From a virus (Duplodnaviria; Caudoviricetes), in IMG/VR virus record IMGVR_UViG_3300033120_001068, positions 1-64,000 of that record: a stretch of DNA of 64,000 nt. One strand, written 5' to 3'. Within the stretch, counting starts at the first letter, position 1. Each line of letters opens with the position of its first letter. A program made the position numbers and the translations under genes. Shown in pieces: positions 6,481 to 22,532 of this stretch. The notes below the pieces were generated by a model. The model was not told the DNA's origin. It ran no database searches and saw only the letters and a list, made by a program, of their open reading frames with translations.

Positions 6481-6894
6481 ATGGAAAATCATATTTTAAA
6501 AAGAAGACAAGAAATTTCTCAAAATATTTCTAAATCCTACAACCAAGATTTTCTTGAAAAAAGTGGAGAAGGAAGTCGAGGAGGAAAAGTTATTGGTCAT
6601 GACAAGAAAGGTAAGCCTATTTATTTTAATGCAAAAGCAGATGCTAATAAGATTCAGAATACTAAAGTGGCTTCTGATGAAAAGAATAAAGATACATCCA
6701 TTTTTGATAAAAAAACTGAAGGAAAGTTGTTTTCTAAGGATGGAGAAGAACTTAATTATAGAGTATATAAAGATGGAGGAGTTAAAATAGAAAGTCTAAA
6801 TTCTAATGAAAACTTTAACACCAAGAAAGAAGCACTTGAATATATTCAGAAGAAAGGTATTAGTCAGAATTCACCACAAAAAAAAAGAAAATAG
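6481..6894 (+). CDS. putative capsid-cargo protein, leader plus module A; probably continues into the GNAT by a -1 shift at an A9 run
   Basis: MENHILKRRQEI leader, FLEK|S site, GEGSRGGKVIGHDKKGKPIY module; ends just after A9 at 6878-6886. Confidence 0.75.
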   Translation: MENHILKRRQEISQNISKSYNQDFLEKSGEGSRGGKVIGHDKKGKPIYFNAKADANKIQNTKVASDEKNKDTSIFDKKTEGKLFSKDGEELNYRVYKDGGVKIESLNSNENFNTKKEALEYIQKKGISQNSPQKKRK

Positions 6895-6986
6895 AAACCA
6901 TTGAACAACTGGAAAAAAGACTTATTGAGAAACACAATTTAAAAACTTTATTTTTATCTGAACATAAAAATAATATTTCTTTAGAT

Positions 6987-7238
6987 ATGGTTGAAGTGTC
7001 TCCAAATGATAGAAATCAAGGAACAGGAACTTCTTTAATGAATGAGTTAGTTAAGTATGCAGATGATAACAATAAAGAAATAAGTTTAATGCCTGGTCTT
7101 CAAGATGATAGAAAAGGAACCACTTCAAGATCCCGTCTTGTTAACTTTTACAAGAGGTTTGGTTTTGTTGAAAATAAAGGGAGAAATAAAGATTTCACAA
7201 AGAAAAGTGGTGGAATGTATTATAAACCAAAACAATAA
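6987..7238 (+). CDS. GNAT-family acetyltransferase domain (reading frame open from 6864)
   Basis: Acetyl-CoA motif A RNQGTGTSLM and LVNFYKRFGF; no stop in frame back to 6864. Confidence 0.8.
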   Translation: MVEVSPNDRNQGTGTSLMNELVKYADDNNKEISLMPGLQDDRKGTTSRSRLVNFYKRFGFVENKGRNKDFTKKSGGMYYKPKQ

Positions 7239-7244
7239 TCTAAA

Positions 7245-8405
7245 ATGGAGAATCACATCTTAAAAAGAAGGCAAGAAATCTGTTCAAATATTTGTTCCAC
7301 TTTTGAAAAAGCAAAAGCTAATATTGGTGAAATTAGAATTTGGGGTGGAGAGAAGTATAAGAAAGTTAATGCAGGAGAATGGGTTAAGTTGGTTGACTCA
7401 AAAGGGATTGAAAAAGAAAAAACAATTGCTCCCTCAGGAATTAATAAAGTTCTAAAAGAAGAACTTAATGAAAAAGAACTTGACTTTAAAAGAAAAGAGG
7501 AAAACTTTGAAAAAGAATGGACCTCTAAAAATGGATTTGGTTTAGCAGGAATTATTTTAAAAGTAAGTTTATCAAGAGCAAAAGAGGCTTCTGAGGAATT
7601 TAATTTAATTGCAAAAGAATATTTCTCTCTTAGAAAAGATTTGACAGATGAGTCAAATGAGGTTAAAGAACTTATAGAAAAAAGACAAAAAGAAAAAAGA
7701 CAAAAAGAAAGTGGGAAAATAGAAATTGATTTAGATGATAATTTATTTAAAGATCTTTTCAAAGATATTACCTCCATTACAAGAAAATATAGTGAGTTAC
7801 CAGTAAGTGTCTCAGCAAAGGTGGCATTAGGATTAAAAGTAAATGCAGATGACTATTGGTTGAGTACCAGTACATCTTTTATGAATCTTTTTTCCTATGA
7901 CTCATTTGAAAGTAAAACAGATGAGAAAGGGGAATGGGTGGATCCAATAGAATTGGAATGGGAAAAATTAAAAAAAGAAAACCCTAAATTAGAACATACT
8001 CATTCTCCTAAATCAACCTCAGAATATTTAGTTGATAGGGAGAAGGGTTTGGTTTATAGGATGGCTGACCATTGGGGGAGGTGTGCTTCTTGCTATTGGG
8101 ATTTTCAAGGAACTCATAGTTATGGGATTGGTGTTTCTAAATTATCAGATTTTGAGAGAAATGATAATGGTTATGGATTTTTAAATCCTGAATTGACTCC
8201 ACTATTAATCTCCTCCTCAAAAACAATTTTTAGAAAAGTAAATAAGGTTTTAGAAAATGAGAAAGTTTATTTAACAAAGCCTTGTTTGAATAAACTTAAA
8301 GTTATTATTGACTCAGTTTCAAGAGATCTAAGGTATAAAATAAATCTTAATATAGAAGAAATTGATAAAATAAAAAAACAATATTCAAAAGTTTTTTTAA
8401 TTTAA
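7245..8405 (+). CDS. putative capsid-cargo protein, leader plus module B plus unknown domain
   Basis: MENHILKRRQEI leader, FEK|A site, IGEIRIWGGEKYKK module; C-terminal RMADHWGRCASCYW motif. Confidence 0.75.
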   Translation: MENHILKRRQEICSNICSTFEKAKANIGEIRIWGGEKYKKVNAGEWVKLVDSKGIEKEKTIAPSGINKVLKEELNEKELDFKRKEENFEKEWTSKNGFGLAGIILKVSLSRAKEASEEFNLIAKEYFSLRKDLTDESNEVKELIEKRQKEKRQKESGKIEIDLDDNLFKDLFKDITSITRKYSELPVSVSAKVALGLKVNADDYWLSTSTSFMNLFSYDSFESKTDEKGEWVDPIELEWEKLKKENPKLEHTHSPKSTSEYLVDREKGLVYRMADHWGRCASCYWDFQGTHSYGIGVSKLSDFERNDNGYGFLNPELTPLLISSSKTIFRKVNKVLENEKVYLTKPCLNKLKVIIDSVSRDLRYKINLNIEEIDKIKKQYSKVFLI

Positions 8406-8426
8406 ACTTCATATCTTAAAAAAGAA

Positions 8427-8648
8427 ATGACAACTTTTCTATCAAATTATAAAATTGAGAAATCAGAAAATGGTACTTTTTTATACAAAAGTAAAGCAGT
8501 CCCTTTTTCTATAAAGAAACCATTCTTCAAGGACAAACCACAGTTTGAGGTGATTTATAAGTTGGAAGATAAAATGAAGGAAAGTGGAAAAAATATGATT
8601 TTATCCACTAAAACTGAAATATTAAAATACTTAAAAACAATAACTTAA
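8427..8648 (+). CDS. hypothetical protein
   Basis: 73-aa ORF filling the gap between genes. Confidence 0.55.
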   Translation: MTTFLSNYKIEKSENGTFLYKSKAVPFSIKKPFFKDKPQFEVIYKLEDKMKESGKNMILSTKTEILKYLKTIT

Positions 8649-8660
8649 AATAAATCGAAT

Positions 8661-10082
8661 ATGAAAGCAGTTTATTCTTATTGGGAAGACTTTGAAATCA
8701 AACTAAATGGAGGCTTCAGGAGTGCTAAGGAAATGGCACTTGTCTTAACACTTTCAGTTATTGAAAGTAAAAAACAATTTTCTTCAGTTGAGTTTTACAC
8801 CACAGAATATGGAAAAAAGATAGTTGAGGATTACCAGATACCTTTTGATAAAGTCTATACCATACTTGATGACTTAACAGATAAAATAGGACTTAATCCT
8901 CAATTCTGGGCTTTTGCTAAAATTTATGTCTATTCCTTGCAAACTGTTCCTTTCATTCATATAGACAATGATGTAATAATCTGGGGTAAACTGCCTGAAA
9001 ATATTCTAAACTCAAAGGTTTTCTTTCAAAATAAGGAACACCTATCAACTCACCAAGGATATACACCAATTTTAAAGTTTGCAAAAGAGAACCTTCCTAA
9101 TGATATTCATGAAGAATTGAAAGAAGTTATAGACACCAAGGTTGACTGGGCTTATAATTGTGGAGTGGTTGGAGGCAATGATTTTTCTTTATTTAAGAAA
9201 TGGAGAGAAATAGTTGAGTCATACATTTTCAATAATGAATTAAACTACTGGGAAAAAGTTAAGGATAAGCATTCACAGAATCACTTTTTTGAGCAATACT
9301 TTATCTCCTCTTTGATAAAAATAACCAACACCACTGCTTCAACTTTATTGAGGGATGATTTTATGAAGTCAGCAACAAGAGATTTTAGATATACTCATTT
9401 ATGGGGAGAAGTTAAAAGAGATCCAAAAATAATCAATAAAGTAAAAGAAAGACTTTATCTTGACTATCCTGAGGTTCAGGAAAGGTTTGAAAAGGAATTG
9501 AGTGACTCAGAGGTCTTTACTGATATTTACCGTAATGAATTATGGGGGAAGGGTGCAGGTTCAGGAGGAGGAAGTTCTATTGAAATAACAGAAGGGTATA
9601 GACAGTTTTTACAAGATTTCTTGAAAGAAAATAAAGTAAAGACAGTAGTAGATTTTGGTTCAGGGGATTGGCAATTTTCAAAACTAATCAATTGGTCAGG
9701 AATTAAATATCTTGGAATTGATTGTGTAGAGGCGGTGGTTAAGAAATGCACAAAACAGCATGGTAAGAAGAATATAAAGTTTCTTTATGCAGATTCATTA
9801 AATGAACTTAAAGAAACCAAGTATGACTTACTTTTACTGAAAGATGTTATAATCCACTGGCCTAATGAAAAGATATCTTCATTCTTCAAGGAAATGAAAG
9901 AAAAAGAACAATTTTCTTATATTCTTGTAACTGTTCAGTCAAATGAAGAAAAAGTAAATGAAGATATAAAAGTAGGGGAATTTCATAATCTTGATTTACA
10001 GAAAGAACCTTTTTTATTGGATTGTGAGGTTTCATATAGATGGGATAATGATAAAAAAACAACTTATCTTTTTAAATTGTAA
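8661..10082 (+). CDS. glycosyltransferase-like (DUF6734-like, DxD) fused to class I SAM-dependent methyltransferase
   Basis: N-half HIDNDV, YNCGVVGG, FEQ and THLWG; C-half VVDFGSGDW, YLGIDCV and LLKDVIIHW. Confidence 0.7.
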   Translation: MKAVYSYWEDFEIKLNGGFRSAKEMALVLTLSVIESKKQFSSVEFYTTEYGKKIVEDYQIPFDKVYTILDDLTDKIGLNPQFWAFAKIYVYSLQTVPFIHIDNDVIIWGKLPENILNSKVFFQNKEHLSTHQGYTPILKFAKENLPNDIHEELKEVIDTKVDWAYNCGVVGGNDFSLFKKWREIVESYIFNNELNYWEKVKDKHSQNHFFEQYFISSLIKITNTTASTLLRDDFMKSATRDFRYTHLWGEVKRDPKIINKVKERLYLDYPEVQERFEKELSDSEVFTDIYRNELWGKGAGSGGGSSIEITEGYRQFLQDFLKENKVKTVVDFGSGDWQFSKLINWSGIKYLGIDCVEAVVKKCTKQHGKKNIKFLYADSLNELKETKYDLLLLKDVIIHWPNEKISSFFKEMKEKEQFSYILVTVQSNEEKVNEDIKVGEFHNLDLQKEPFLLDCEVSYRWDNDKKTTYLFKL

Positions 10083-10084
10083 AG

Positions 10085-11038
10085 ATGGTTTTAGATTCTC
10101 AACAAATAAATACTCTTTTATCAATTATCAATAACAACCAATCTATCTTGATAGGCAGGGAATTAGGTTTAGATTTCTTGTCTGAGTATGATAAGTCTTT
10201 ATTGATTAGTAATGGGATTGATTTGGAGGAATTATATCAACCAGGAAATGACTCAATCTATACTTCTTTCCATCTTGGTATGCTAGCAGTTGCTTTGAAT
10301 GATACCAAGGCTTTAAATAAATTGCAATACAAAGACCTTTATAATTATGTCAAAGAAGGAAAATATATACCAATTTCTCAAAGAGAACTTGCAACAGTTC
10401 AAGCAATCAAAAACCAAACCTTTGCAGACATAAAAACTTTGAATGGAAGAATATTCCAAGATCTTAATGGAATACTTTCTAATTCTACATTGAAGGGGCA
10501 ACAAGATTTCTTGAAAAAGGAGATTGTTGAGGGTTTAGAAAAAAAGAAGACATTAAGGGAAATTTCAAATACCATTTCTGAAAAGACAGGAGATTGGCAA
10601 AGAGATTTTGATAGGATTGTAGAATATCAATCTAATACTGCCTATCAAGAAGGAAGGGGGGCAATGTTTGAAAAAGATGAACTTGGGGAAACAAACAATT
10701 CTGACCCTGATGTCTATAAACTGGTTTTTGAATCTGCTTGTAAACATTGCCTAAGTCTATACACCACAAAAGGGTGGAGAAGTGAACCAATAGTTTTTAA
10801 ATTATCAGTACTTAAAGGAAATGGTACCAATATAGGTAGAAAGACTGCTGACTGGAAAGCAATAGTAGGGTCAACTCATCCTTTTTGTAGATGTTTATTA
10901 TTTAGAAAAAAGAAAAACACCTTTTGGGATATGAAGTCACAATCTTTTGTACAATCTAAAGAAAGCCCACTTGACCCTAAGATACGTAAGAGACAACCAA
11001 TTAGAATTAAGATAGCAGGTAAAGAAATGTCTGTATAA
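10085..11038 (+). CDS. MuF-like (Mu gpF / SPP1 gp7) minor head protein
   Basis: RIVEYQSNTAYQEG, CKHC and HPFCRC motifs; lies between portal and protease. Confidence 0.8.
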   Translation: MVLDSQQINTLLSIINNNQSILIGRELGLDFLSEYDKSLLISNGIDLEELYQPGNDSIYTSFHLGMLAVALNDTKALNKLQYKDLYNYVKEGKYIPISQRELATVQAIKNQTFADIKTLNGRIFQDLNGILSNSTLKGQQDFLKKEIVEGLEKKKTLREISNTISEKTGDWQRDFDRIVEYQSNTAYQEGRGAMFEKDELGETNNSDPDVYKLVFESACKHCLSLYTTKGWRSEPIVFKLSVLKGNGTNIGRKTADWKAIVGSTHPFCRCLLFRKKKNTFWDMKSQSFVQSKESPLDPKIRKRQPIRIKIAGKEMSV

Positions 11039-11054: not shown

Positions 11055-12119
11055 ATGGATTTTAATTCAATAAGAAAAGCTAAATCAGAAAGACTACTTC
11101 AATCTTTTATCCAACCTGAACTTGAAAAAGGGGGTAAGAGAGCTGTCGTTGGAGAGGTTCGGCTTTGGGGGAACGAAAAATGGGTTAAGCATGAAGACGG
11201 TTGGGTGAATGTTAATGAAAAATCTGGGAAAGCTACCTTAGAACATCCTGGTGGTAAGAGAAGTGCTGCTCAGCAGCACCACATCGACCACCATAAATCA
11301 AGTATGGAGAAGCATGGGGAAAGGAGTGAGAAAGAGGAGAAGGTTGAGAATCCATTAGTATCTGAAATTCAAACTAATCTTAGTAAAGTTTTAGATCTTG
11401 CAACTCCATTTCTTGAAGAAAAAACAAAAGAATATATAGAGTCAGTTTTAAAAGAGGGAAAAGAAGAACCAACTAACTTAGATATTGAATACTATAAACT
11501 TGGAATTACTATTGACTTAATAAAGGCATTTTCTAAGTATATCAAACCAACTGACCAAGTAAAGGTAGATTCATTTAAAACTACAAGAAATGGTTCTGTT
11601 TCTGCAAGTCTTACAGTGACAAGGGGAGAGGAAAAGTATAAAATGGAAACTGAAGCAATAATTGCTGGAGGGTATAACATTCAAGATAGACATTACAGAT
11701 ATATTTCTCACACTAAACTTCCCGCAAGTGAGAACAAAGATTCTTATCAAAAACTTGAAGAAAGAAGAAATAAACTTTCTAAAAGAAAAAAGTTAGAATA
11801 CGACTTAGAAATTCAAAGTAATTGGTATAAAAGAGATGTAGATAAGTTTGAAAAAGAAAGTTCAAAAACCTATGAAGAAGTAATTTCAGAGCATCCTTAT
11901 ATCACTATTGACAATACTTTTGATAAAATGAATAATGGTGGAAAAGCTAATTTTAATAATAGTCCTGATGAATTTAATGCCTACATGGAAAAAGAAAGAA
12001 AGGAAACTTGGCAAAGACATCAACAGGCATATAAACCAGAAAGGTTAAGAGCAATTCACAGTGATTATCAAAAAAGAATTAGTAAGTTACAATCTAAAAT
12101 TGAAGAAATAATTAACTGA
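11055..12119 (+). CDS. putative capsid-cargo protein, leader plus module B plus unknown domain
   Basis: RLLQSF...LEK|G site, AVVGEVRLWGNEKWVKHEDGW module; IIAGGYNIQDRHYR motif. Confidence 0.75.
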   Translation: MDFNSIRKAKSERLLQSFIQPELEKGGKRAVVGEVRLWGNEKWVKHEDGWVNVNEKSGKATLEHPGGKRSAAQQHHIDHHKSSMEKHGERSEKEEKVENPLVSEIQTNLSKVLDLATPFLEEKTKEYIESVLKEGKEEPTNLDIEYYKLGITIDLIKAFSKYIKPTDQVKVDSFKTTRNGSVSASLTVTRGEEKYKMETEAIIAGGYNIQDRHYRYISHTKLPASENKDSYQKLEERRNKLSKRKKLEYDLEIQSNWYKRDVDKFEKESSKTYEEVISEHPYITIDNTFDKMNNGGKANFNNSPDEFNAYMEKERKETWQRHQQAYKPERLRAIHSDYQKRISKLQSKIEEIIN

Positions 12120-12153: not shown

Positions 12154-12690
12154 ATGGATTCTAATCATATTAAAGAAAGAAGACAAAGTATTTCAAACAA
12201 TATTTTTAATTCTTTTAATCAAGACACTATCGAAAAGGGTGGTGAAGGTAGTAAGGGAGGAAAAGTAATTGGTCATACCAAGTCCGGGAAACCGATTTAT
12301 GAAAGTGGTAGAGCTAAGGATTATAAAGACTTTACTGGTCAAGACCACTATGATGCAGCTAAGTTTCATAAAGAAAAGGTCTTGTCTATGACTCCAGAAC
12401 AAAGGGAAGAAAAGAAAATTAAGACTTATGATAATAATCATGAGATAGAAGGTCATAAAAAGACACTGGAAAATACAATGTCTGGGTATTCTGGAGAATA
12501 TAAGGCAGGTGTAAGTCCTCAATTCAATGAAACTCATTTGCATTACCATAAAGAAGACCAAGAAAAGGTAGATAAACACTTACAAGGTAAAGGGTATAAA
12601 AAAGACATTGATGAAAAGAATCAAATCTACTACCATAATAAGGATGTTAATCACTATATTTTAGCAAGACCAAAAAATACAAAGGTTTAA
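12154..12690 (+). CDS. putative capsid-cargo protein, leader plus module A
   Basis: MDSNHIKERRQSI...NIFNSF...IEK|G; GEGSKGGKVIGHTKSGKPIY. Confidence 0.75.
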   Translation: MDSNHIKERRQSISNNIFNSFNQDTIEKGGEGSKGGKVIGHTKSGKPIYESGRAKDYKDFTGQDHYDAAKFHKEKVLSMTPEQREEKKIKTYDNNHEIEGHKKTLENTMSGYSGEYKAGVSPQFNETHLHYHKEDQEKVDKHLQGKGYKKDIDEKNQIYYHNKDVNHYILARPKNTKV

Positions 12691-12741: not shown

Positions 12742-14196
12742 ATGCACAAAGGGAAAGAAGTTCAAGCAAGGAGGATTCTTCAACTTTACCAAGGGGAGCT
12801 TAAGGAAGATATATTAAAGGGATTTTCTATTGAGGAAATTAGAAACTTTCATTTAATGCAAGTAGATTCTTTGGAAAAATCTATTTCTGGTAAAATAAAA
12901 AAGAAAGTTAAAGTTTCAATGAAGGATGGTTCTTTTCATTATGCAGTAAGGTGGGTTAATCCTGATACTGGACAATCTGATGACTTACAGCATAATAGAT
13001 ATAGAAAGACAGGGGATATGACTGCTGATGAAGACACAAGTGTTCAAGAAATAGTTTCTAATGATTCTTTGAAATCTACTGAAAAATTTAGGAAACTTGC
13101 AAGTCTTGGTATTTATGATAAAAAAACTTTAGCAACACTTTCAGGACATAAATATCCTGGGGACATTAAAGAAGCTCTTAAAAAAGAAGTTCAATTAAAC
13201 TCAGATGATTATAATGATAGTGTAAATTCTATTTTACCATCTTCCCCTCCTCCTGGAACAGTATCAAAGTTACAAGATGAAGAAGTTCAAAAAATGTCTA
13301 TTTCTGAGATTCAAGATAAATTTGGTTCAAAAGCAGCTTTTGAGGCACAAAGAAATTTAAAGCAAGAAATTATTGACAAGTACGGTTTAACAGTTGAAGA
13401 CAAATGGGATTCTTATGAACAAAGATTAACCACACTTGTAGTCAACAGATTTCCAAAAGCAGTAATGGCTTATGGAACAGGAGGGATTGGAAAGACTTAC
13501 ACATTTGAGAAAGTAGCAGCAGAAAATGGTTTAAGAGAGTTTGATGAAGAATTAGGTTTAGAAAATGGAGGTCCTGATTATGATTATTATATTATGTCTG
13601 GAAAAGGAGGTTCACTTGCAATTCAAAGAGCAATGTATGAACATTCAAACAAACTTATAGTTTTTGATGATTTTGACTCCATGTGGAAAGATGATGATTT
13701 GATAAATGTATTTAAGAAAGCATTAGATACCTCAGGAGATAATAAATGTCAATGGGCAAAACCTTTAAAAGAAACTGAACCTGGAAAAGGGGATACTGTT
13801 CCAAGTAGATTTAGATTTACGGGTAGAATGTTGTTTATCACCAACCTAACTAAAAAGGAACTAGATGCTGCAGGAGCTTCTCCTATTACAGAATCAAGGT
13901 GCTCCTCAATTGATCTTACAATGACTGCAGAACAAGCAATACAGAGACTTAAAAATGTCTTGCCTTATGCTAAGATCTTGACAGATGATAAAGAAGAAAT
14001 TGAAGCAACCTTTGAAGACAAGGAAATGGCTTTTGAGATTATGAATAATACTAGACAATATGCTAGGATAGAACAAATAAACAACAGGGTTCTTGGTACT
14101 ATAATAATGCAAGCAAGAACTCAAAGAGAAAGAACAGGAGAGTATGACCAAAGAAAGTTAGAAATCTTTTTGTTGCAACAATATGGATTAGGATAA
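12742..14196 (+). CDS. leader-bearing protein (module C) with C-terminal AAA+ ATPase
   Basis: Walker A GTGGIGKT, Walker B IVFDDFD, sensor FITN; N-terminal RILQLY...LK|G and LEK|S sites. Confidence 0.8.
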   Translation: MHKGKEVQARRILQLYQGELKEDILKGFSIEEIRNFHLMQVDSLEKSISGKIKKKVKVSMKDGSFHYAVRWVNPDTGQSDDLQHNRYRKTGDMTADEDTSVQEIVSNDSLKSTEKFRKLASLGIYDKKTLATLSGHKYPGDIKEALKKEVQLNSDDYNDSVNSILPSSPPPGTVSKLQDEEVQKMSISEIQDKFGSKAAFEAQRNLKQEIIDKYGLTVEDKWDSYEQRLTTLVVNRFPKAVMAYGTGGIGKTYTFEKVAAENGLREFDEELGLENGGPDYDYYIMSGKGGSLAIQRAMYEHSNKLIVFDDFDSMWKDDDLINVFKKALDTSGDNKCQWAKPLKETEPGKGDTVPSRFRFTGRMLFITNLTKKELDAAGASPITESRCSSIDLTMTAEQAIQRLKNVLPYAKILTDDKEEIEATFEDKEMAFEIMNNTRQYARIEQINNRVLGTIIMQARTQRERTGEYDQRKLEIFLLQQYGLG

Positions 14197-14341: not shown

Positions 14342-17300
14342 GATGGTTGGAAAAAAATCACCAGTTGGAACACAAAGTTTATGGTCTGAGGGTTGGATGG
14401 TTAAAACTCATGATAACTCAATCTTTGATAATGTCCATTCTCCCTGGAAACCAGTACCAAAAATTCCAAGTGGGATTTCTTCCCTCATTGAATTAATTGA
14501 GAGAATTGGAAGAGAAATTCACAAGTTCAAAGAACCAGCAGATGGGGCAATATGGTTAAAAAGGGTTCTTAACGAAATGAAAACTAAGAGTGGTAAAGAA
14601 TTTACTGCTGCTGAGTTTGAGGGTTATAAAGACTGGAATGGTGGAGAGGTTTTTTCTTTCAAAATGGCACTTGAAAAAAGGTACATTGATAATTTTTTGA
14701 AATTAAATTCTGAAATTTATGCAGAACTAGATTTACAGAATGACTCAGATACTGTTAGGTTAACTTCTGAACAAATAAAAGAAATCAAAAAAAGAGTTAA
14801 AGAAAGTTACATTGAGGATTCTGAACTTACAATGAGTCAGGAAGATTATCAAGATGTAAAAGAAACTTTACAATCTGTACTTGATGATTTAAGAGCAGGA
14901 TTTAACTTTGATGGTGAAAAAAAAGTAGTTTATGGTAGGTTTCAAGAATTTATTGAAATACTAACCAATTCACAAGAATATGTATCTATAAGAGCCATTA
15001 CAGATACTTTTTCTGAACAAATGCTTTCTATATCAAAAACTTTCAAAGATAGTTGGGGTATTCAAGATACTTTAAAAACAAAGTTAGCAAAAGGTCTTTC
15101 ATCTTATCAAGATAGATTTAAGAAAGAAATAAAGGAAGAATCTCAAAAAATATTCAATGAGAAATATCCTGACTTAAATATAGATTCTCCAGTTGAAGAT
15201 TTTTATAAGGAATTAAGAGAAATAGATAAAAAAGAAACCAATGACTTAATGAATGACCTTCCTGGTAGATTAGTTTCTTTTTCAGGAACAACTTACTTGA
15301 TTAACAACAGGAGAGGTCCAAAATCAGATGGTTCTTACAATTTATATTTAACTAATCTATCTACTAATGAAACTAAAGTTGTAGAAGCATCTATTGAAGA
15401 AATAAAAAGTGGAATTGAGGCAGTCACAGGGGGCAGTAGTTTAATTTCAACCCTACTTTCTGCAAGATTTAAAGAAAGAACAAATAAATCATTAGTAGGT
15501 TCATTTGGTTTTAAAGAACTTGAGATGCTTTATTATGTAGAAAAACTTTCTGAAAAACTTCCAGAAGGTCATTTGAAAACAAATAATGAATTAACCTCAT
15601 TTAGAAAACAAAATGAATATTTACCGGGTACAGATAACAGTTACGCTCATTATAGTCCTTCAAGTAAAGACATTTTTCTAAGTTCACAGTCTTTATCCAA
15701 AGCAAGTGATAACTTTGATATTAACAGCCCCTTAGAACTTCTTTCTGTTATGACTCATGAGATTGGTCATTCAGTAAGTCAAAAATTAGGAAGAATAAAC
15801 AGTATTCTTTATAAAAGATTTGTTATTGAATGTGGTTGGTCTTGGGGTCAGTTTCATGGAGGAAAATCTTATGTGGCAACTGGATCTGATGAAGATATTA
15901 AAAGAGAAGGAAGTAATTCTCAAACCCTTTTAATAACTGAATATAGTGCAAAGTCTCCTGAGGAAGCATTTGCTGAATACTATTCTTTCTATTCTTTGAA
16001 TAAAAAAGAAATTGACAGATTTATAGAAACAGGAGAAACTAAAAGTCTCAACAAACATAAAAGATTTAAAGAAACTAATACCAATAAAACTTACAGTGAT
16101 GTAAAAGAAAAACTTTTAAGAGCCCATCTTGACTTAGACATAAATTTTATAGATAATTTATTGATTAATTCAAACAGGGATATTTCTCAACATATAAAGA
16201 CAGACATAGTAGATCCATTTTATAATAATTTACAAGTCTCTCCAAACTTAGATTCTTTAAAATACAGAGTTAAACATATCTTAAAAGAAAATAGAGAAAG
16301 TTATGAAGGTGTGCCTATTTTCACTACTTTTAATTCAATTACAGGAGTTCATGAGAATAAAGATGATTATGAGAAAGGGATTAATTTAAGTAATAAATAC
16401 CTTCAAAGATTTACTCCAACTTATTCAATCTCAAATGACTGCTATAAAATTTTACAAGATAGTGGATATTCTAACTCAGAGATTGAAATCTATGTTCTCA
16501 AAAAGTTGAAAGATAAAAAAGTGCCTGAGGTTAATAAGAAAATATTATCAGGTAAGATAAATATAGACGATTTAACAAGTGGTTTAATGTATAGAGGTGA
16601 ATTACTTACAACTGATAAATTATCTAAAAACAAAAAGATTTTTCAAAGTATGAAAAATATATGGGAATCTGAAGAATTAAAGAAAGCAATGATAGAATTA
16701 GGATTTAATCAGACAAATGAAGCAGAACCAAACTCAGATAATGGGACTTTTTGGTCAGATACTTTTAAGCCTTTTATTAATAAATTTAAAGACTTACTTT
16801 CTCAAAAGAAAGACAAAAGGAAATATTATGCAGATACAGTTGTAAGAAACTCAAAAGGAGAAATCTTATTGCTTCAAAGATCTTATCAAGATGACTTTAT
16901 GCCAGGTGTATGGGGTTTACCAGGAGGGAAAGTAGATGCAGGAGAAAGTTTTGTTGAAGCAGCAGAAAGAGAATTATTAGAAGAAACAAATTTAGGAAGT
17001 ATTTCAAACTTGCAATTTAGATTTCTGAAAAGAGTTGAGAAAGAAGATTGTGTTATAGAATATTTTGAAACCCATATTGATGATATTGAAGGAATGATAT
17101 TAGATAATGAGGAACATTATAGACTACAATGGACCCCTATTGAAAGAATTGGTGATTATGATTTAATTTTAGACTTACATTCAACCCTTTTAGACCTTCC
17201 TTTATCTCTTTGCCAAGAATTTGATGAAGATATCCTGGAAGTGAACCCAACTCATCTTTTTGAAAGAAAATCTTCTTTATCAAAAGCATTTGAGGAAAAG

Positions 17301-17441
17301 TTGATAGATGAGGAAAAATATAAAAAAGAAACCAAGACACTTTCAAGACTATCTTTTGAAGTTATAAAGAAAGGATTTAATGAAGGCACAGTTAGTCTTG
17401 CTGATTATCATAGAGCCTATTTGATAGCAAGTAGAATTTAA
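14274..17441 (+). CDS. large polyvalent head protein: zincin metallopeptidase (HExxH) plus Nudix hydrolase
   Basis: THEIGH...TEYSAKSPEEAFAE zincin motif; Nudix box GGKVDAGESFVEAAERELLEETNL. Confidence 0.8.
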   Translation: MDMEKVLILLQCYKNVKKDYKYKMVGKKSPVGTQSLWSEGWMVKTHDNSIFDNVHSPWKPVPKIPSGISSLIELIERIGREIHKFKEPADGAIWLKRVLNEMKTKSGKEFTAAEFEGYKDWNGGEVFSFKMALEKRYIDNFLKLNSEIYAELDLQNDSDTVRLTSEQIKEIKKRVKESYIEDSELTMSQEDYQDVKETLQSVLDDLRAGFNFDGEKKVVYGRFQEFIEILTNSQEYVSIRAITDTFSEQMLSISKTFKDSWGIQDTLKTKLAKGLSSYQDRFKKEIKEESQKIFNEKYPDLNIDSPVEDFYKELREIDKKETNDLMNDLPGRLVSFSGTTYLINNRRGPKSDGSYNLYLTNLSTNETKVVEASIEEIKSGIEAVTGGSSLISTLLSARFKERTNKSLVGSFGFKELEMLYYVEKLSEKLPEGHLKTNNELTSFRKQNEYLPGTDNSYAHYSPSSKDIFLSSQSLSKASDNFDINSPLELLSVMTHEIGHSVSQKLGRINSILYKRFVIECGWSWGQFHGGKSYVATGSDEDIKREGSNSQTLLITEYSAKSPEEAFAEYYSFYSLNKKEIDRFIETGETKSLNKHKRFKETNTNKTYSDVKEKLLRAHLDLDINFIDNLLINSNRDISQHIKTDIVDPFYNNLQVSPNLDSLKYRVKHILKENRESYEGVPIFTTFNSITGVHENKDDYEKGINLSNKYLQRFTPTYSISNDCYKILQDSGYSNSEIEIYVLKKLKDKKVPEVNKKILSGKINIDDLTSGLMYRGELLTTDKLSKNKKIFQSMKNIWESEELKKAMIELGFNQTNEAEPNSDNGTFWSDTFKPFINKFKDLLSQKKDKRKYYADTVVRNSKGEILLLQRSYQDDFMPGVWGLPGGKVDAGESFVEAAERELLEETNLGSISNLQFRFLKRVEKEDCVIEYFETHIDDIEGMILDNEEHYRLQWTPIERIGDYDLILDLHSTLLDLPLSLCQEFDEDILEVNPTHLFERKSSLSKAFEEKLIDEEKYKKETKTLSRLSFEVIKKGFNEGTVSLADYHRAYLIASRI

Positions 17442-17459: not shown

Positions 17460-19031
17460 ATGAAAATACAAGATAATAAATTCAATTTCTTTGTCCCTGC
17501 TCAATTTGAGAAAAGTGGTAGTAAGGACAAAATGAAAATAAAAGGAGTATGTTCTACAGGAGATGAGGATTTTGATGGTGAATTTTTAGATCCAGATGGT
17601 TTTGATTTTTCTCCTCTTCTTGCTAGTGGTTATTTCAATTGGAACCACCAAGGGTCAAAAGATCCAGGAGCCATCATAGGAAGGCCTACAATGGCAAAAG
17701 TTTTACCTAAAAAGCAATTTTATGTAGAAGGATTTCTTTATTCAGGAGTGAAGGCAGCAAGAGATATCTATGATTTAGCAAAATCCTTGGAAGAGGAAGA
17801 TCCTGAAAGAAATATAGGCTTCTCAATTGAAGGAACAGTTGTACAGAGAGATCCAGTAAATCCTAAGAAAGTAAGGAAAGCAATTATAACAGGTATTGCT
17901 TTGACTCATTGTCCTAAAAACTCAAATACTTTGCTATCAATTGTTAAAGGTACTTATAATGAATCTTTCATAGGAGAAACAGAAGATAATAAGTCTTTAG
18001 TTGATGGATGGTGTAATTGGAGTAATGGAAGGGATTTAAATAGAGATAATGTAATAACTTTTCTTCAAGAAAATTTTACAGAACTTGACCCTAATGATGA
18101 TTTTGTATCTAAGTTAATGTTAGATGTAGGAAAATCAATGTCAACTGCTAATATCCCTATGCAAGAATCAGTTGAAGGAGATCCATATAGAAAACAAAAA
18201 AAGTTACTAAAAAGTAATGTTTATTCACAAATAATTAGTAAATTTAATTTCGAGAATGAAAAAGAGTCTAAAATAGAAGATATCTTTTCATTTATTGAAG
18301 AAACAGCCTTAAAATTATTTTCAATGAAAACTATAACCCAAGAAGTTTTAAATAAATCTTTTTCAATTCTAGAAGAATCAATTAAATTGGAAAAAGGTAA
18401 AAATGATTCTCCTTTAGATAAAACTGATGAAGTTCCTGAGGAAAAAGAACTTGAGGAAGAAGAAGATAAGAAAAAATCCAAATCTAAGGAAGAAGAAGTT
18501 CCTGAGGAAGAAGAACCTGAAAAAGAAGTTGTAGAAAAAAGTAAAGACTCATTTGATTTTAGTAAACTGGCAACAGGATTTTCTGATTTACTTCAAAAAT
18601 CTTATGATGAAAACTTTAAAGTTGTAGAAAATTTAGGAGAACAAATTTCTGATAGATTTGAAGCAATTGGTGATTTACTTCAAAAATCTTATGATGAAAG
18701 TTCTTTATTGAGGCAAGAAATTGCATCTTTACAAGAACAAGTTTTAAAAGTTGGAAATACTCCATATCCAAAAAAATCAATTACTAACCTTAGAGGAGTT
18801 GAAAGATTTGAAAAGTCTCAAGATTCACAAGGTAACCAATATTCACTTTCAATTCCTCAGCACCGTAACTACATAAAAGAACAATTGTTTGAAGAATTCC
18901 AAAAATCAATGGTTCTTGGAAAACCAAACCAATTGATTGAAAAGTCAATTATGGACTTAGAAATTGCTAAATCATTGCCTACAGAAATACTTCCTTTTCT
19001 ATCAAGTAGAGGAATTGATGTTATAAATTGA
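17460..19031 (+). CDS. prohead protease with C-terminal scaffold region
   Basis: EDFDGE, FNWNH and IGFSIEG protease motifs; acidic coiled-coil C-half with many K|S sites; directly upstream of the capsid gene. Confidence 0.88.
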   Translation: MKIQDNKFNFFVPAQFEKSGSKDKMKIKGVCSTGDEDFDGEFLDPDGFDFSPLLASGYFNWNHQGSKDPGAIIGRPTMAKVLPKKQFYVEGFLYSGVKAARDIYDLAKSLEEEDPERNIGFSIEGTVVQRDPVNPKKVRKAIITGIALTHCPKNSNTLLSIVKGTYNESFIGETEDNKSLVDGWCNWSNGRDLNRDNVITFLQENFTELDPNDDFVSKLMLDVGKSMSTANIPMQESVEGDPYRKQKKLLKSNVYSQIISKFNFENEKESKIEDIFSFIEETALKLFSMKTITQEVLNKSFSILEESIKLEKGKNDSPLDKTDEVPEEKELEEEEDKKKSKSKEEEVPEEEEPEKEVVEKSKDSFDFSKLATGFSDLLQKSYDENFKVVENLGEQISDRFEAIGDLLQKSYDESSLLRQEIASLQEQVLKVGNTPYPKKSITNLRGVERFEKSQDSQGNQYSLSIPQHRNYIKEQLFEEFQKSMVLGKPNQLIEKSIMDLEIAKSLPTEILPFLSSRGIDVIN

Positions 19032-19085: not shown

Positions 19086-20561
19086 ATGATAACGTTAAAC
19101 GATTACAACGTCGAAGCAGGTTTTCTTGGAGGTTCTGCAGAAGGGTCACTTGAATTACAGAAAGCAATGCAAGCCGGCCAGATAACTGGTAGAGACACAA
19201 CTGGTCAGATGCTGACTCAAGAGCCTTTAAAGGCTGAATCTTTGGAAACTACTCTTAAACTATTAGAGTTTAGAACAAAGGATGTAAAATTATGGAATGC
19301 CATTCCAAAACTTACTGCTTATAATACAGTAGAAGAGTTCTTGCAACTTTCAAGTTATGGTACACAAAGAGGAGGATTTTATAATGAAGGGGAACTTTCT
19401 GATGTAGAGGATTCTCAATACATTCGTAGATCTGAGAAAGTAAAATATATGCAGGTGACTGGAGAAGTTACAATGCAGGCTCAGATGGTTCGTAGTTTTG
19501 TAGATGCAATGAGAAAAGAAACTGAGAACAAGATGATGTGGATTCTTAGACTTGTTAATACTTCATTGACAAAAGCAGATGAAGATATAGTTCCTCAGGA
19601 ATTTAACTCACTTTACAAACAACATGCTTCTATTGGAGTTACACAAGAATTCTTGTATGCAACTTTTGAAGAATACTACAACTCAACTTCTGTTATTGAC
19701 CTTAGAGGTGCTACATTGACTCAAGATGATGTTGAAACTTCTTCTGTTAATATAGATGCTAACTATGGTTCACCAGACACTTTATTTGCTCCTACAACTG
19801 TAATTTCAGCACTTGCAAAAGATTACTACCAAGACCAAAGAATCTTGATGGATGGTAGAGGATTTGAAGGTACACTTGGAGTTGTTCCAAAAGCAATTTC
19901 AACTACACTTGGTGATATTGCTTTAATGTCTGATAAATTCATGAAAGCAGATCCTTCAAAATTACTTTCTACTCCTGCAACCTCAGTAAAAGCACCAACA
20001 GCACCTGCAAGTGTTACAGTTGCTTTAGCATTAGATGGTTTATCAAAATATAAAACTGGAGAACTTGGAGATGTCTTTTATGCAGTAAGTACACTTAACC
20101 GTAATGGTGAGTCAAATTTGACTGTCTACACAACTCCAGTTACTCTTGCAGCAGGATACAGAGCAGACATTACACCAATTTTAGGAACAGGCCCTAACAG
20201 TCCTTCTGGTTATGTTGTTTATAGAACAAAAGTAACTCTTGCATCTACTCCAACAGGATTGGAATTTTTTCCAATCTTCAAAGTAAGTTTAGCACAAGTT
20301 AACTCAGGCTATAATGGTTCAAGTTCTGGTGCTATTGGGGATAGAGGTTATTTCTTGCCTGATACAGAACAATGCTTCCAAACTCAAATGGATGAAGAAG
20401 TTTTAAGTTTCAAACAATTGGCTCCAATGTCTAAACTTGATTTAGCAGTATTGTCAATGAGTAGAAGATTTATCACTTTCTTATTTGGAACTCCTCAATT
20501 ATATACTCCTAAGAAATTTGTTAGGTTTATAAATGTAGGAAAGGTTTACAAAAAATCTTAA
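19086..20561 (+). CDS. major capsid protein
   Basis: PLKAESLETTLK and EEFLQLSSYG...GGFYNEGEL resemble Herelleviridae-type capsid; predicted maturation site LQK26|A27; followed by a strong terminator. Confidence 0.92.
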   Translation: MITLNDYNVEAGFLGGSAEGSLELQKAMQAGQITGRDTTGQMLTQEPLKAESLETTLKLLEFRTKDVKLWNAIPKLTAYNTVEEFLQLSSYGTQRGGFYNEGELSDVEDSQYIRRSEKVKYMQVTGEVTMQAQMVRSFVDAMRKETENKMMWILRLVNTSLTKADEDIVPQEFNSLYKQHASIGVTQEFLYATFEEYYNSTSVIDLRGATLTQDDVETSSVNIDANYGSPDTLFAPTTVISALAKDYYQDQRILMDGRGFEGTLGVVPKAISTTLGDIALMSDKFMKADPSKLLSTPATSVKAPTAPASVTVALALDGLSKYKTGELGDVFYAVSTLNRNGESNLTVYTTPVTLAAGYRADITPILGTGPNSPSGYVVYRTKVTLASTPTGLEFFPIFKVSLAQVNSGYNGSSSGAIGDRGYFLPDTEQCFQTQMDEEVLSFKQLAPMSKLDLAVLSMSRRFITFLFGTPQLYTPKKFVRFINVGKVYKKS

Positions 20562-20610: not shown

Positions 20611-20641
20611 ATTATATTTAACTTACTTAAAGAATTGAAAA

Positions 20642-21088
20642 ATGATAGAGCAAGAACAAGTTACAGTTAGCACAACTGAAAAAGGAAATTATAGAAATGG
20701 TAGACAAGTAACTTTGCCTATCTTAGGTTTCTTCTTTATTCCTTCATGTGGAACTTTTAAAGTTGAGAAAAATTTAGGAGAAAAATTTGTTGAAACAGTT
20801 GAAGGATTTGAGATAAGAGAACCAATTGCTCCTCAAACAACAGAAGGAGGAGAAGTTTTAGAAAAGAAAAAAAATGATAAAGGTCAAATTTTACCTCAAA
20901 CAACAGAAGAAGGATTAAAACTATCAGAAGGAGAAGAAGTTAGTTTGAGTGAATTAGAGGTTATTGAGTCATTGAGTGGTCTAACTGTCCCTGAATTGCA
21001 AGTAATGGCTGAGCCTTTTACAGAGAAGGAATGGAAGAATTTAAAAAAACAAGACTTAATTAATTATTTAGCTACTAAACTAAAATAA
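20642..21088 (+). CDS. hypothetical protein with C-terminal Rho-N/HeH-like helical domain
   Basis: LSGLTVPELQVMAE...KKQDLINYL; internal PQTTE repeat. Confidence 0.6.
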   Translation: MIEQEQVTVSTTEKGNYRNGRQVTLPILGFFFIPSCGTFKVEKNLGEKFVETVEGFEIREPIAPQTTEGGEVLEKKKNDKGQILPQTTEEGLKLSEGEEVSLSELEVIESLSGLTVPELQVMAEPFTEKEWKNLKKQDLINYLATKLK

Positions 21089-21093
21089 GATAT

Positions 21094-21960
21094 ATGGGTC
21101 AATTAATTTTACTTGCCCCTTTTGAGCAAAAGTTAAATACTGTCTTTTCGGTACAAGACTTGAAAGAAAGATATTTACCTGGAATTCCTTTGCCTGAGTC
21201 AGTTACAGAATCAAGTTTATCTTTCTTTATAGATAGTGCTATTTCTGAATTGGAAAATTTTCTTACTTTAAAGATACCAAAACAGATAGTTCATGAAAAT
21301 AAAGATTTTTATAGAGATGACTGGGTCAACTGGAATTATCTTAGAGTAACTTATCCAGTAGTTTGTCCAATTTCATTAGAAGGATATTTAGGTACAACAA
21401 GACAAATAACTTACCCTAGGGAATGGATGAGTACAAGGAAGACAAGTGATGGTAAGTTGTTCCACAGGTCTATTAATATGGTACCTACAAGAAACTCAAC
21501 CACAACTGAGGCATTAATTTACTCAGGAGTTATGCCTAATTCCCATTATACTGCTTCTAAAACTATTCCAAATTATTGGAGCATTAAATATGTGACTGGT
21601 TGGGATGTCCCTCCCCCTGAACTTTTAGATGTAATTGGAATGATGACTTCAATAAAAGTCTTGCAAATAATTTCAGATGCCTTAATGTCAGGAAGTTTAA
21701 GAAAAGTTGTCAATCAGGATGGTCAAGATACATTAGCTCCTAATGGTACTTCATTTGGCGGAGTTGGTTTTGGTTTGTCTTCTAAATCTATTTCAATAGA
21801 TGGTTTATCACAATCTTATTCTACTTATGTTAATGGTCAGACAGGAGTGTGGGGAGCAAGATTAAAACAATATGCAGAAATTTTAGATGTTACAAAGCCT
21901 AATACTTTATTAAATAGACTTTATGATACTTATACTGCTTTAACTATGGGAGTTGCTTAA
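21094..21960 (+). CDS. head-tail connector / neck protein
   Basis: Position after capsid; YVTGWDVPPPELLDVIG and SISIDGLSQS motifs. Confidence 0.65.
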   Translation: MGQLILLAPFEQKLNTVFSVQDLKERYLPGIPLPESVTESSLSFFIDSAISELENFLTLKIPKQIVHENKDFYRDDWVNWNYLRVTYPVVCPISLEGYLGTTRQITYPREWMSTRKTSDGKLFHRSINMVPTRNSTTTEALIYSGVMPNSHYTASKTIPNYWSIKYVTGWDVPPPELLDVIGMMTSIKVLQIISDALMSGSLRKVVNQDGQDTLAPNGTSFGGVGFGLSSKSISIDGLSQSYSTYVNGQTGVWGARLKQYAEILDVTKPNTLLNRLYDTYTALTMGVA

Positions 21961-21962
21961 TT

Positions 21963-22532
21963 ATGTACTCAGTTTCTGAAATAATAGAATTAAAAAAACA
22001 AAGGATTTCAAATTCTTTTGAAAAAGGGAAGAAACAAGTTCAAGTTAACCGTAATGGTAAGATCTATTATCAATTAAGAGAAGAAGGTAAAAAAGAAGAA
22101 GAATCAGAAGGCAAAAAACACTTAAAACAAATTTCTTCTTTTACCACTGGAAAGCAACAAGAATTCTATAAATGGCAACTTGATAATTCAAAAGTTACTC
22201 CAATTTCAAGAAGTAAAGACTTAGGTGTTAAGATTGGTAGACCTGAGTTGAAAGAATGTTATAAGAATGCAGCTAAGTGTTGCTTTATAAATGAAGGAGT
22301 TAATTATGTGGAAGGGTATGCAATGTTTATGGGGATACCAATTGAACATGCTTGGTGTGAGAAAGATGGTAAATATTTTGACCCTACAGTTGATGGGGTT
22401 TTAGATAGTTCATTTGACGAATATTTAGCAGTTGTAGAATTAACTCCTGATGAAATTTTAGAATATCAAAGAAAGACGGGAATGTATGGACCATATTTAA
22501 GTGAAGTTTTTAAAGACAAAAATAATGAGTGA
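21963..22532 (+). CDS. putative capsid-cargo protein, leader plus module C plus transglutaminase/papain-like Cys-His-Asp domain
   Basis: RISNSFEK|G; KKQVQVNRNGKIYYQ; ECYKNA, YVEG, IEHAW and FDPT. Confidence 0.7.
   Translation: MYSVSEIIELKKQRISNSFEKGKKQVQVNRNGKIYYQLREEGKKEEESEGKKHLKQISSFTTGKQQEFYKWQLDNSKVTPISRSKDLGVKIGRPELKECYKNAAKCCFINEGVNYVEGYAMFMGIPIEHAWCEKDGKYFDPTVDGVLDSSFDEYLAVVELTPDEILEYQRKTGMYGPYLSEVFKDKNNE

Follow-up and report, generated by a model that had tools for sequence, protein, structure and literature searches.

Why do several otherwise dissimilar proteins encoded around the head genes of a phage have a short N-terminal leader with the same type of site at its end as the predicted propeptide of the phage's capsid protein? 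We addressed this question in a window of 64,000 nucleotides (positions 1–64,000 of IMG/VR record IMGVR_UViG_3300033120_001068) from the 89-kb genome of an uncultured Bacteroidota phage. To judge from the sequence, the capsid probably takes up several gene products of this phage, which would be trimmed inside the head. The kind of system is already known (the T4 capsid-targeting sequence, the propeptides of phiKZ), and the present set is a variant with different parts.

Organization of the head region

All features described here lie on the plus strand, and genes are named by their first nucleotide. The head module starts with the portal protein gene (2869–4485; PHROG portal families, E = 4e-47; weak match to TIGR01537) and contains the genes of the prohead protease (17460–19031) and the major capsid protein (19086–20561). 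The leader-gene block is flanked by the portal gene on one side and by the protease and capsid genes on the other.

Rereading the ORFs and N termini from the sequence confirmed the lysine positions given by the earlier note for six intact genes (K27, K22, K25, K28, K46, and K21). All six leaders end in a hydrophobic residue, Glu, and Lys, followed by Ser, Gly, or Ala (a slash marks the proposed cut). In leader gene 1 (6481–6894, 137 amino acids), the leader comprises residues 1–27 (6481–6561), ends in FLEK/S, and is followed by module B (GEGSRGGKVIGHDKKGKPIY). The leaders of gene 2 (7245–8405, 386 amino acids; residues 1–22, 7245–7310, TFEK/A) and gene 3 (11055–12119, 354 amino acids; residues 1–25, 11055–11129, ELEK/G) precede module A and a cargo region, whereas that of gene 4 (12154–12690, 178 amino acids; residues 1–28, 12154–12237, TIEK/G) precedes module B and a DFTxxDHxDA motif. 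Candidate leader gene 5 (12742–14196, 484 amino acids) has a proposed leader of residues 1–46 (12742–12879) ending in SLEK/S, then module C and a P-loop ATPase. Probable leader gene 6 (21963–22532, 189 amino acids) combines a leader of residues 1–21 (21963–22025, SFEK/G) with module C, a β-hairpin, and a transglutaminase-like domain.

The neighboring block genes 8661 and 10085 are without leader. The latter (10085–11038) encodes a conserved head-module protein of 317 amino acids, present in 30 related loci; it may be a relative of the SPP1 gp7/MuF minor capsid protein, to judge from a match to TIGR01641 (E = 0.0037) that stays under the cut-off of that model. Gene 14274 (14274–17441) encodes a large multidomain protein with a module A-like start and no family leader. 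Its Nudix domain (Pfam NUDIX, E = 9.5e-18) is the sole confirmed one; a possible zincin is suggested by a very weak peptidase M48 match (E = 0.18). Homologues of this protein begin directly at MAKRMPVGTIRSW, so its true start may be Met24.

A predicted cleavage site in capsid, protease, and scaffold

The prohead protease occupies residues 1 to about 170 of its gene product and continues into an acidic scaffold-like tail (phrog_1028, E = 2.6e-42). It matches SPO1-type proteases (tblastn E = 2e-18), searches of Pfam and NCBIfam returned no protease family for it, and it carries a site of its own, QFEK18/S. The capsid protein (phrog_752, SU10_MCP) matches SPO1 gp6.1 (PDB code 9vel, E = 3.6e-49; tblastn E = 3e-48). 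Its predicted propeptide (residues 1–26, 19086–19163) ends in LQK26/A, as the earlier note had read it, and SPO1 gp6.1 has LNK/A aligned at the same point. Across 49 dereplicated lineages, the capsid L-x-K/A and the N-terminal Phi-x-K/[GSA] of the protease are kept, with an invariant Lys.

When the strict site is defined as [LIFVM][EQ]K[SGA], the protease-scaffold gene contains 8 strict sites, together with 15 loose ones; the 8 strict sites fall in 523 residues, versus 34 in 28,494 residues overall in this genome. In the scaffold parts of protease genes from 37 related lineages, the strict site is 13-fold over background (Poisson 3e-118), and in SPO1, 11 sites fall within the 244 residues of the scaffold gp3.3. 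The strict site is also found in the first 50 residues of 9 of 22 head-region ORFs, versus 4 of 89 other ORFs of this genome (Fisher p = 4e-5). Across 48 dereplicated related loci, an N-terminal site occurs in 44 of the 270 ORFs that lie upstream of the capsid gene, compared with 25 of the 389 downstream (p = 8e-5).

From these sequence comparisons, the signal at the leader ends very probably marks the point where the SPO1-type prohead protease of the phage itself cuts. The semi-tryptic N termini put forward earlier as a cleavage test are unsuitable: trypsin also cuts after Lys, so that the trimmed ends would appear fully tryptic.

Two related metagenome contigs, L014 and L015, each carry a single 1098-residue ORF in which the protease is joined with three module B (12154-like) units, a module C unit, and a 12742-type ATPase, with cleavage-type sites at the unit junctions. 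This fusion links 12154-like and 12742-like proteins to the procapsid interior. Since the site type is common to the capsid, the protease N terminus, the scaffold, and this natural protease–cargo fusion, head packaging and in-head trimming are the best reading of the leader proteins. We consider it likely that they are capsid-interior precursors, with leaders that would be cut off by the phage's own prohead protease.

Cargo domains

The leaders had been described as attached to diverse enzymes. This holds for genes 21963 and 12742, and for 6481 if fused to its neighbor, all of which look enzymatic, but 7245 and 11055 are without recognizable fold or family, and 12154 encodes a small protein. 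The cargo of 21963 is a putative transglutaminase-like Cys-His-Asp domain. Residues Cys-99, His-129, and Asp-140 are invariant in 50 sequences, and in the AF2 model (pLDDT 93) the cysteine starts helix 99–109. In the transglutaminase-like/papain-like cysteine peptidase superfamily, a Cys that opens a helix is combined with His and Asp on the strands that come next. Fold matches to PeiW, LapG, and TglA agree with such a relationship but are weak (Z 4.0–4.6, Foldseek E about 0.1), and a Pfam search gave no match for this domain. The same domain recurs within multidomain proteins of 500–1844 residues, next to NUDIX, His_Phos_1 (histidine phosphatase), and Zeta_toxin-like domains. The cargo of 12742 is assigned as a P-loop ATPase by phrog_1250 and weak AAA matches.

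A GNAT acetyltransferase reading frame (6864–7238; Pfam Acetyltransf_7/10/1) lies in the −1 frame with respect to 6481 and is open from 6864. The A9 run at 6878–6886, the sole A9 run in the genome, could fuse this frame to leader gene 1. No fold match was found for the cargo of 7245, nor a recognizable family or fold for that of 11055, and domain searches detected more than one catalytic domain in none of the six leader genes. That the leader proteins are injected into the host and have anti-defence roles is something that we only infer.

The smaller proteins of the set (12154, 6481, and what remains of 46292), and perhaps others, could instead be head-core assembly or DNA-packing proteins that are cut by the protease and have no role in the host, in which case "effector" would be the wrong word. 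L014 and L015 carry their three module B units where other phages have scaffold, the mature N termini are basic, and the 12154 family consists mostly of proteins of 108–180 residues, without enzyme motif and in several copies per genome. However, the same leader–site–module architecture also bears enzyme-like cargos (transglutaminase-like, ATPase, possible GNAT), and the conservation of the residues DFTxxDHxDA..H may indicate a specific function. Small size and basic character are, moreover, shared by the T4 internal proteins, one of which, IPI, is an anti-restriction factor. We regard a pure assembly role as rather unlikely, though it is the alternative that deserves most weight.

β-Hairpin modules at the leader junctions

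The proteins behind the leaders had been called unrelated. This is true beyond residue 50–80; before that point, short modules are common to pairs of them (6481/12154, 7245/11055, and 12742/21963). Of 11 starts of module A, 10 have a site in front of them; for module B the count is 11 of 12. In the 12154 family, which has 152 metagenome relatives, a Lys occupies the leader/module junction in 117 of 118 members, with leaders from 4 to 224 residues long. Similarly, Glu-21 and Lys-22 are invariant across nine members of the 7245 family, whereas the leader varies, and eight 7245 orthologues retain both residues and module A. Homologues of 12742 have short leaders ending in IEK/A or IQK/A.

Module A of 7245 is a four-stranded β meander. 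In the AF2 model of this protein (pLDDT 86.8), Lys-22/Ala-23 lies in a low-confidence linker after helix 2–18, and in the model of 21963, Lys-21/Gly-22 is placed between helix 4–20 and the hairpin. A search for module B relatives in cultured phages found none.

The shared N terminus might also be an ordinary paralogous domain, for example an oligomerization helix with a Gly-rich linker, which spread by duplication or recombination and is neither cut nor used for packaging, its likeness to the capsid site being coincidental. The three module-sharing pairs are indeed partial paralogues, and E-K-G-G could be a plain helix cap and linker. The near-invariant junction Lys behind leaders of such different length, however, argues against this explanation, as do the 13-fold enrichment of the motif in scaffolds, its conservation at the capsid maturation point, its presence at the junctions of the protease fusion in related phages, and the specificity of the enrichment for N termini of head-region genes. 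We consider it improbable.

Within the preferred reading of protease-trimmed precursors, the idea that the leader is a portable address tag stands in part. The leaders do end in a prohead protease-type site, shared with capsid, protease N terminus, and scaffold, and protease–cargo fusions exist. The helix as portable address does not stand: homologues with the same cargo have leaders of down to seven residues (MNTDIEK/G, MVGVIEK/S) or none, and the hairpin modules right behind the cut are conserved at least as well as the leader helix. A leader helix that is dispensable in many homologues makes its role as the address doubtful. To judge from their conservation, it may be these hairpin modules that actually serve as the address; for the targeting element, the evidence leans to the module or site region rather than to the helix.

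Statistical support for the leader family

Membership of the leader family is statistically supported for 6481, 7245, 11055, and 12154, whereas 12742 and 21963 belong to it by motif and orthologues only, and 46292 is a broken paralogue. In leader-family profile and jackhmmer searches, the four supported proteins, 6481 robustly among them, retrieve each other and about 15 proteins of related phages. Seeding jackhmmer with the leader of 11055 recovers 6481, 12154, and 13 related-phage proteins. Profile E-values within the family range from 1e-7 to 1e-19, compared with E > 0.02 for the next unrelated matches. Gene 21963 ranks top in a leave-one-out profile test, but with E = 0.14 only; its orthologues retain a leader ending in FEK/S or IEK/S. 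The leader of 12742 was retrieved by no profile and fits by the motif alone.

A profile search found no significant leader in the disrupted 12154-family paralogue (46292–46926; tblastn E = 1e-11 to 12154 and 2e-12 to 6481). Its 103-amino acid ORF is closed by an in-frame TGA at 46601, past which the sequence reads FLRK/GGEGSRGGKIIGHTKSGKPIY, followed by a frameshift into a DH.DAA motif.

Over their first 12 codons, 6481 and 7245 encode an identical peptide with 5 synonymous and no non-synonymous differences, indicating selection at the peptide level, as had been proposed. Two other features attributed to the leaders had to be given up. The six-residue pattern [NRK]-[IL]-x-x-[STL]-[FY] is not specific on its own, as it also matches about five unrelated ORFs, and the leaders are not basic overall, their net charge being about 0 to +0.6; the basic stretch is the 40 residues downstream of the site. 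Chance in a Lys- and Glu-rich, low-GC proteome, for which these unrelated matches and a loose-site background of 0.6 per 100 residues could be cited, is highly improbable in view of the profile E-values and the significant Fisher and Poisson tests, and for 6481, 7245, 11055, and 12154 it is refuted by the leave-one-out profile and jackhmmer searches.

Comparison with known systems

In T4, the internal proteins IPI–III and Alt carry an N-terminal capsid-targeting sequence (CTS) that is removed by the prohead protease gp21 (PMC3012670, PMC9026906). As with the CTS, the leaders described here appear as short N-terminal peptides on otherwise unrelated proteins, ending in the apparent capsid/scaffold protease site, and the T4 cargo of small basic proteins and a host-modifying enzyme is comparable to the present set. 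However, there is no sequence similarity to the CTS, the predicted cut follows Lys instead of Glu (L/I-x-E in T4), and the protease is SPO1-type rather than of the gp21 family. Leader length is also highly variable here, and the interchangeable β-hairpin modules that follow are absent from T4.

In the giant phages phiKZ and SPN3US, ejection and inner-body proteins bear propeptides, and the prohead protease trims many head-internal proteins, among them paralogous families, at a motif that they have in common (PMC5694885, PMC7411985, PMC10052503). The present proteins likewise include paralogues with a shared predicted protease motif, but the protease lineage and the motif differ (theirs is cut after Glu), the genome has only 89 kb, and the propeptides are short and modular.

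Iyer et al. 2017 (PMC5512222) predicted that polyvalent proteins of phages and conjugative elements, in which at least two dissimilar catalytic domains share a polypeptide, are packaged into the head and injected. Their repertoire matches the Nudix, acetyltransferase, peptidase-like, and ATPase domains that adjoin the head-morphogenesis genes here, and the 21963 domain occurs inside such proteins. In contrast to polyvalent proteins, most cargos here consist of a single domain and have a gene, a leader, and a site of their own; the passages of that work consulted make no mention of Lys-site leaders or of these modules.

The head module itself has a close parallel in SPO1 (Herelleviridae), with a homologous protease (gp3.2) and capsid protein (gp6.1) and with the Phi-x-K/[SGA] site type in capsid protein, protease, and scaffold. 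SPO1 gp5.3 starts with MDKDILLVIDIEK/G, then a basic hairpin-like stretch. Whereas the SPO1 genes of portal gp3.1, protease gp3.2, scaffold gp3.3, and capsid gp6.1 are adjacent and without cargo block, here ∼13 kb of genes separate portal and protease, and scaffold and protease form a single fusion protein.

Proposed mechanism and implications

Each precursor would begin with an amphipathic helix, which is optional and differs in length, continue with the site hydrophobic-(Glu/Gln/x)-Lys/(Ser/Gly/Ala) and a hairpin module, and end in a variable cargo, the module being a β-hairpin of 20–30 residues of one of at least four types. Such precursors would co-assemble with the protease-scaffold core within the procapsid, where the protease would remove the leaders and, likewise, the first 26 residues of the capsid protein, and degrade the scaffold. 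Mature cargo would then remain with the DNA in the head and exit with it at infection. An early action on the host is possible for some cargos, namely the transglutaminase-like domain, the ATPase, the possible acetyltransferase, and the neighboring Nudix multidomain protein.

More tentatively, SPO1-type head modules, from SPO1 to a large group of uncultured Bacteroidota phages, may use an undescribed two-part loading code, in which a removable Phi-x-Lys/small-residue leader is paired with one of several hairpin adaptors of 20–30 residues that dock to the procapsid core or to DNA. If this were true, whatever cargo follows the pair would enter the head and be delivered, and chosen proteins could be loaded into heads. 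The question could be taken to the bench with SPO1 gp5.3 or with MA9V-3, a Chryseobacterium phage available in culture.

If confirmed, the packaging and trimming of the leader proteins would extend protease-coupled cargo loading from T4 and the phiKZ group, the main cases so far, to a different lineage of proteases, cutting after Lys, that would take in SPO1-like phages as well as many uncultured phages of Bacteroidota. Site and module together would then be a sequence rule that predicts which unannotated phage genes encode injected proteins, and genes so predicted would be promising candidates for a role in taking over the host early or in countering its defences.

Organization of the Head Module

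The full genome is a single contig of 89,022 bp with 30% G+C, the window being its first 64 kb, and all of its long ORFs lie on the plus strand. The head module opens with the gene for the portal protein (2869–4485, plus strand), followed by two genes for membrane proteins and one for an endolysin. After a block of ∼11 kb come the genes for the protease, which is fused to a scaffold-like acidic tail (17460–19031, plus strand), and for the major capsid protein (19086–20561, plus strand). Judged by tblastn, the protease is homologous to gp3.2 of SPO1 (E = 2e-18) and the capsid protein to gp6.1 of SPO1 (E = 3e-48), the counterparts in SPO1-like Herelleviridae. The capsid protein also matched PDB code 9vel (E = 3.6e-49); a sequence search with the protease matched no solved structure. 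By capsid identity, the closest cultured phages are Chryseobacterium phage MA9V-3 (71%) and the Bacteroides phages of the DAC/SJC group (38%).

Two genes within the cargo block (8427–10082) lack the leader described below. One encodes a small conserved protein of 73 amino acids with an IEK12|S motif that is not retained in its orthologues, and the other a 473-amino acid protein with DUF6734 and a SAM methyltransferase domain. The adjacent 317-amino acid protein (10085–11038) is conserved in 30 related loci and shows a faint match to TIGR01641 (SPP1 gp7/MuF minor capsid protein; E = 0.0037, below the cut-off); it may be a MuF-like anchor of the cargo block.

Predicted Cleavage Site of the Prohead Protease

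The leaders described in the earlier note end at a site of the form Φ-x-K|[SGA], where Φ is hydrophobic and the bar marks the predicted cut. Its account of seven N termini (genes 6481, 7245, 11055, 12154, 12742, 21963, and 46292, named by their start positions), of their lysines (K27, K22, K25, K28, K46, and K21 in the six intact genes), and of the capsid site LQK26|A was borne out. The strict form of the site, [LIFVM][EQ]K[SGA], occurs 34 times in the 28,494 residues of the proteome, and eight of these occurrences fall in the 523-residue protease-scaffold. The lysine site is more frequent at the N termini of head genes, being found within the first 50 residues of 9 of 22 head-region ORFs versus 4 of 89 others (Fisher p = 4e-5).

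Four lines of evidence, all independent of the leader genes, suggest that this motif is the cleavage site of the prohead protease. Among 48 related loci (this genome excluded), the strict site lies within the first 50 residues of 44 of the 270 ORFs that precede the capsid gene versus 25 of the 389 that follow it (p = 8e-5), the internal background being 4.5%. Across 49 dereplicated lineages, the aligned position of the capsid protein reads L-x-K|A, and the protease carries Φ-x-K|[GSA] near its N terminus; the lysine and the small residue after it are constant, and the residue preceding the lysine is variable. SPO1 gp6.1 has LNK|A aligned at the capsid maturation position. In 37 related protease genes, the scaffold-like part is enriched 13-fold over background in the strict site and 6-fold in the loose one (Poisson p = 3e-118), a density that is expected because a scaffold must be destroyed by its protease, and the separate scaffold protein of SPO1, gp3.3, holds 11 Φ-x-K-S sites in 244 residues. 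Covariation of the P2 residue between the capsid site and the leader sites was not evident by eye.

The portal protein (2869–4485) has two site-like motifs near its N terminus (VKK28|A and IYK40|A) and another nine residues before its C terminus (FLK529|A), and might itself be trimmed by the prohead protease.

Membership of the Leader Family

The six-residue leader pattern put forward in the earlier note is specific when combined with the lysine site but not alone, as approximately five unrelated ORFs also match it. Genes 6481 and 7245 do encode an identical peptide in their first 12 codons, with five differences, all synonymous. Just after the site follow short β-rich modules, namely module A in 7245 and 11055, module B in 6481 and 12154, and module C in 12742 and 21963; the domain beyond the module is the cargo.

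Leave-one-out profile tests within the genome recovered 6481, 12154, and 7245 (E = 1e-14 to 3e-4); 21963 was top-ranked, yet at E = 0.14, 11055 reached E ∼1, and 12742 was not recovered. For comparison, 80 related loci were drawn from IMG/VR using the capsid protein alignment; an IMG/VR search with the protease alone as the query gave no matches. A profile built on the six leaders found genes of MA9V-3 as its only matches at E < 0.01 among 82 loci, and iterative N-terminus searches were needed for the leader family. These covered 1,623 ORFs with 12154 or 11055 as seeds and recovered 6481, 7245, 11055, and 12154 together with ∼15 proteins of nine related phages, with the consensus DFNEIRKAQSERILKSYNTDELLEK|GG. 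In the same search, 21963 ranked 32nd, 46292 49th, and 12742 61st, none of them significant. Orthologues of 21963 in a large protein library start with MYTFESLPNNRVRQIYSCFEK|S and MVGVIEK|S and continue into the same hairpin module, so that 21963 is a probable member of the family. For 12742, the motif is the only basis of a putative membership; its homologues in more distant phages have the N termini MSDIIQK|A or MVKNEDLIEK|A.

The gene at 46292–46926 is a broken paralogue with module B, in which an in-frame TGA at 46601 is followed by FLRK|GGEGSRGGKIIGHTKSGKPIY (E = 1e-11) and then by a frameshift. Because TGA serves as an ordinary stop here, ending 13 of 90 long ORFs, decay of the gene is more probable than recoding. 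A leader on the 1055-amino acid Nudix protein (14274–17441) was rejected, as its homologues begin at the module itself. Their start, MAKRMPVGTIRSW, aligns with residue 24 onwards; the annotated Met-1 may therefore be wrong and Met-24 the likelier true start.

The Leader–Module Junction and the Loading Signal

Alignments of relatives indicate that the junction of leader and module is the conserved element of these proteins. With 12154 as the query, 152 relatives were found among 5.8 billion proteins, none carrying a name, and tblastn against cultured phages gave no matches. The junction lysine is present in 117 of 118 module B relatives, P3 (two before the lysine) is leucine or isoleucine in 103, and the residue after the lysine is glycine, alanine, or serine in 117 of 117; the leader is 4 to 224 residues long and contains the helix motif in only about half. 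Within the 7245 family (nine members), Glu-21, Lys-22, and module A are invariant, and the leader differs among members in both length and sequence. An exposed site is consistent with the AF2 models: 7245 is modeled with a helix (residues 2–18), low-confidence residues 13–23 including K22|A23, and a confident four-stranded meander (residues 30–60), and 21963 with a helix (residues 4–20), K21|G22, and a hairpin (residues 23–40).

The leaders, modules, and cargos of 7245, 11055, and 12154 matched no family in Pfam, PHROGs, or NCBIfam. Another type of N-terminal module, N-[RK]-x-L-G-R-V-G, occurs in two loci (L012:5051–8293 and L002:14503–16161), one in an IMG/VR phage, where it follows DIIEK|S, and one in Bacteroides phage DAC19, where it lies close to the N terminus of a protein. 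A literature search by text found no paper on the module motifs, this one included.

The earlier note had proposed that the leader is a portable address tag for head loading and injection. This role is cast into doubt by homologues in which the same modules and cargos stand behind leaders of seven residues (MNTDIEK|G) or, as in those of 14274, lack any leader. The site directly precedes the N-terminal copies of module A in 10 of 11 cases and of module B in 11 of 12, and the leaders are near neutral, with the 40 residues after the cut being basic. These features suggest that loading may be signaled by the modules or by the site region itself and that the helix may be an accessory.

A Natural Fusion of Protease and Cargo

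On two related IMG/VR contigs from different metagenome samples, protease and cargo are joined in one ORF of 1098 residues (L014:3579–6875 and L015:3579–6875). In this ORF, the protease is followed by one module B unit, a copy of the mature N terminus of the capsid protein (FKK|AMEAGSVTGTETTNQSLTQAPLKEES), two further module B units, and module C with a 12742-type ATPase. At the junctions inspected, Φ-x-K|[SGA] is present. As the procapsid interior is where the protease acts, this fusion is the strongest evidence here that the units are taken into the procapsid and cut apart inside it. The copy of the capsid arm sits between cargo units, where it may serve as a decoy or provide the capsid shell with a docking element.

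Cargo Domains

Past the modules, no two of the six proteins are related. The description of the cargos as diverse enzymes is only partly true, as some contain enzyme-like domains, whereas 7245 and 11055 have no recognizable family or fold. The 7245 model had only generic helical matches in Foldseek and VIA-align, and ESM Atlas gave nothing usable for 11055. The family to which 12154 belongs consists of small proteins that share a DFTxxDHxDA motif. The small members could conceivably be structural.

By its sequence, the cargo of 12742 is a P-loop ATPase. That of 21963 is a 140-residue domain with invariant Cys-99, His-129, and Asp-140, the cysteine lying at the start of a helix. Its fold matches are weak (Z ≤ 4.6), and the top-ranked are mostly transglutaminase-like cysteine peptidases, among them PeiW, LapG, and TglA. 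A search restricted to near-length proteins found only 21963 itself; a profile search without length limits found 1,619 cluster representatives. The domain occurs alone or within proteins of 500–1844 residues with NUDIX, histidine-phosphatase, and zeta-toxin-like domains, which is the polyvalent-protein setting described by Iyer et al. 2017 (PMC5512222).

A GNAT acetyltransferase frame (6864–7238) is separated from 6481 by an A9 run (6878–6886), the sole A9 run in the 89-kb genome, versus 14 A8 runs. Because this run lies between the two frames, 6481 may be joined to the acetyltransferase by slippage. A weak Phage_g100 match of 6481 (E = 0.0046, below the cut-off) was set aside.

Comparison with Known Systems

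The T4 capsid-targeting sequence and the propeptides of phiKZ/SPN3US follow the same logic as the leaders predicted here. This phage differs from both in the protease lineage, the predicted cut after lysine, the leader sequence, and the adaptor-like modules, and a literature search found no paper describing lysine-cut leaders with adaptor-like modules. The semi-tryptic N termini suggested earlier as a readout would not reveal the predicted cut, because cleavage after lysine yields fully tryptic peptides.

In SPO1, the genes for portal, protease, scaffold, and capsid protein are adjacent, without the cargo block present here. The motifs LSK|A and LEK|S lie close to the N terminus of the SPO1 portal. 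Just upstream of the SPO1 portal gene, gp5.3 (138 amino acids; L083:6852–7268) starts with MDKDILLVIDIEK|G, followed by the basic hairpin-like stretch VVTYVKDGRTVTRKQWVR, the same architecture as that of the cargo genes of this phage. Because gp5.3 shares this layout, a model phage may offer a way to test the scheme.
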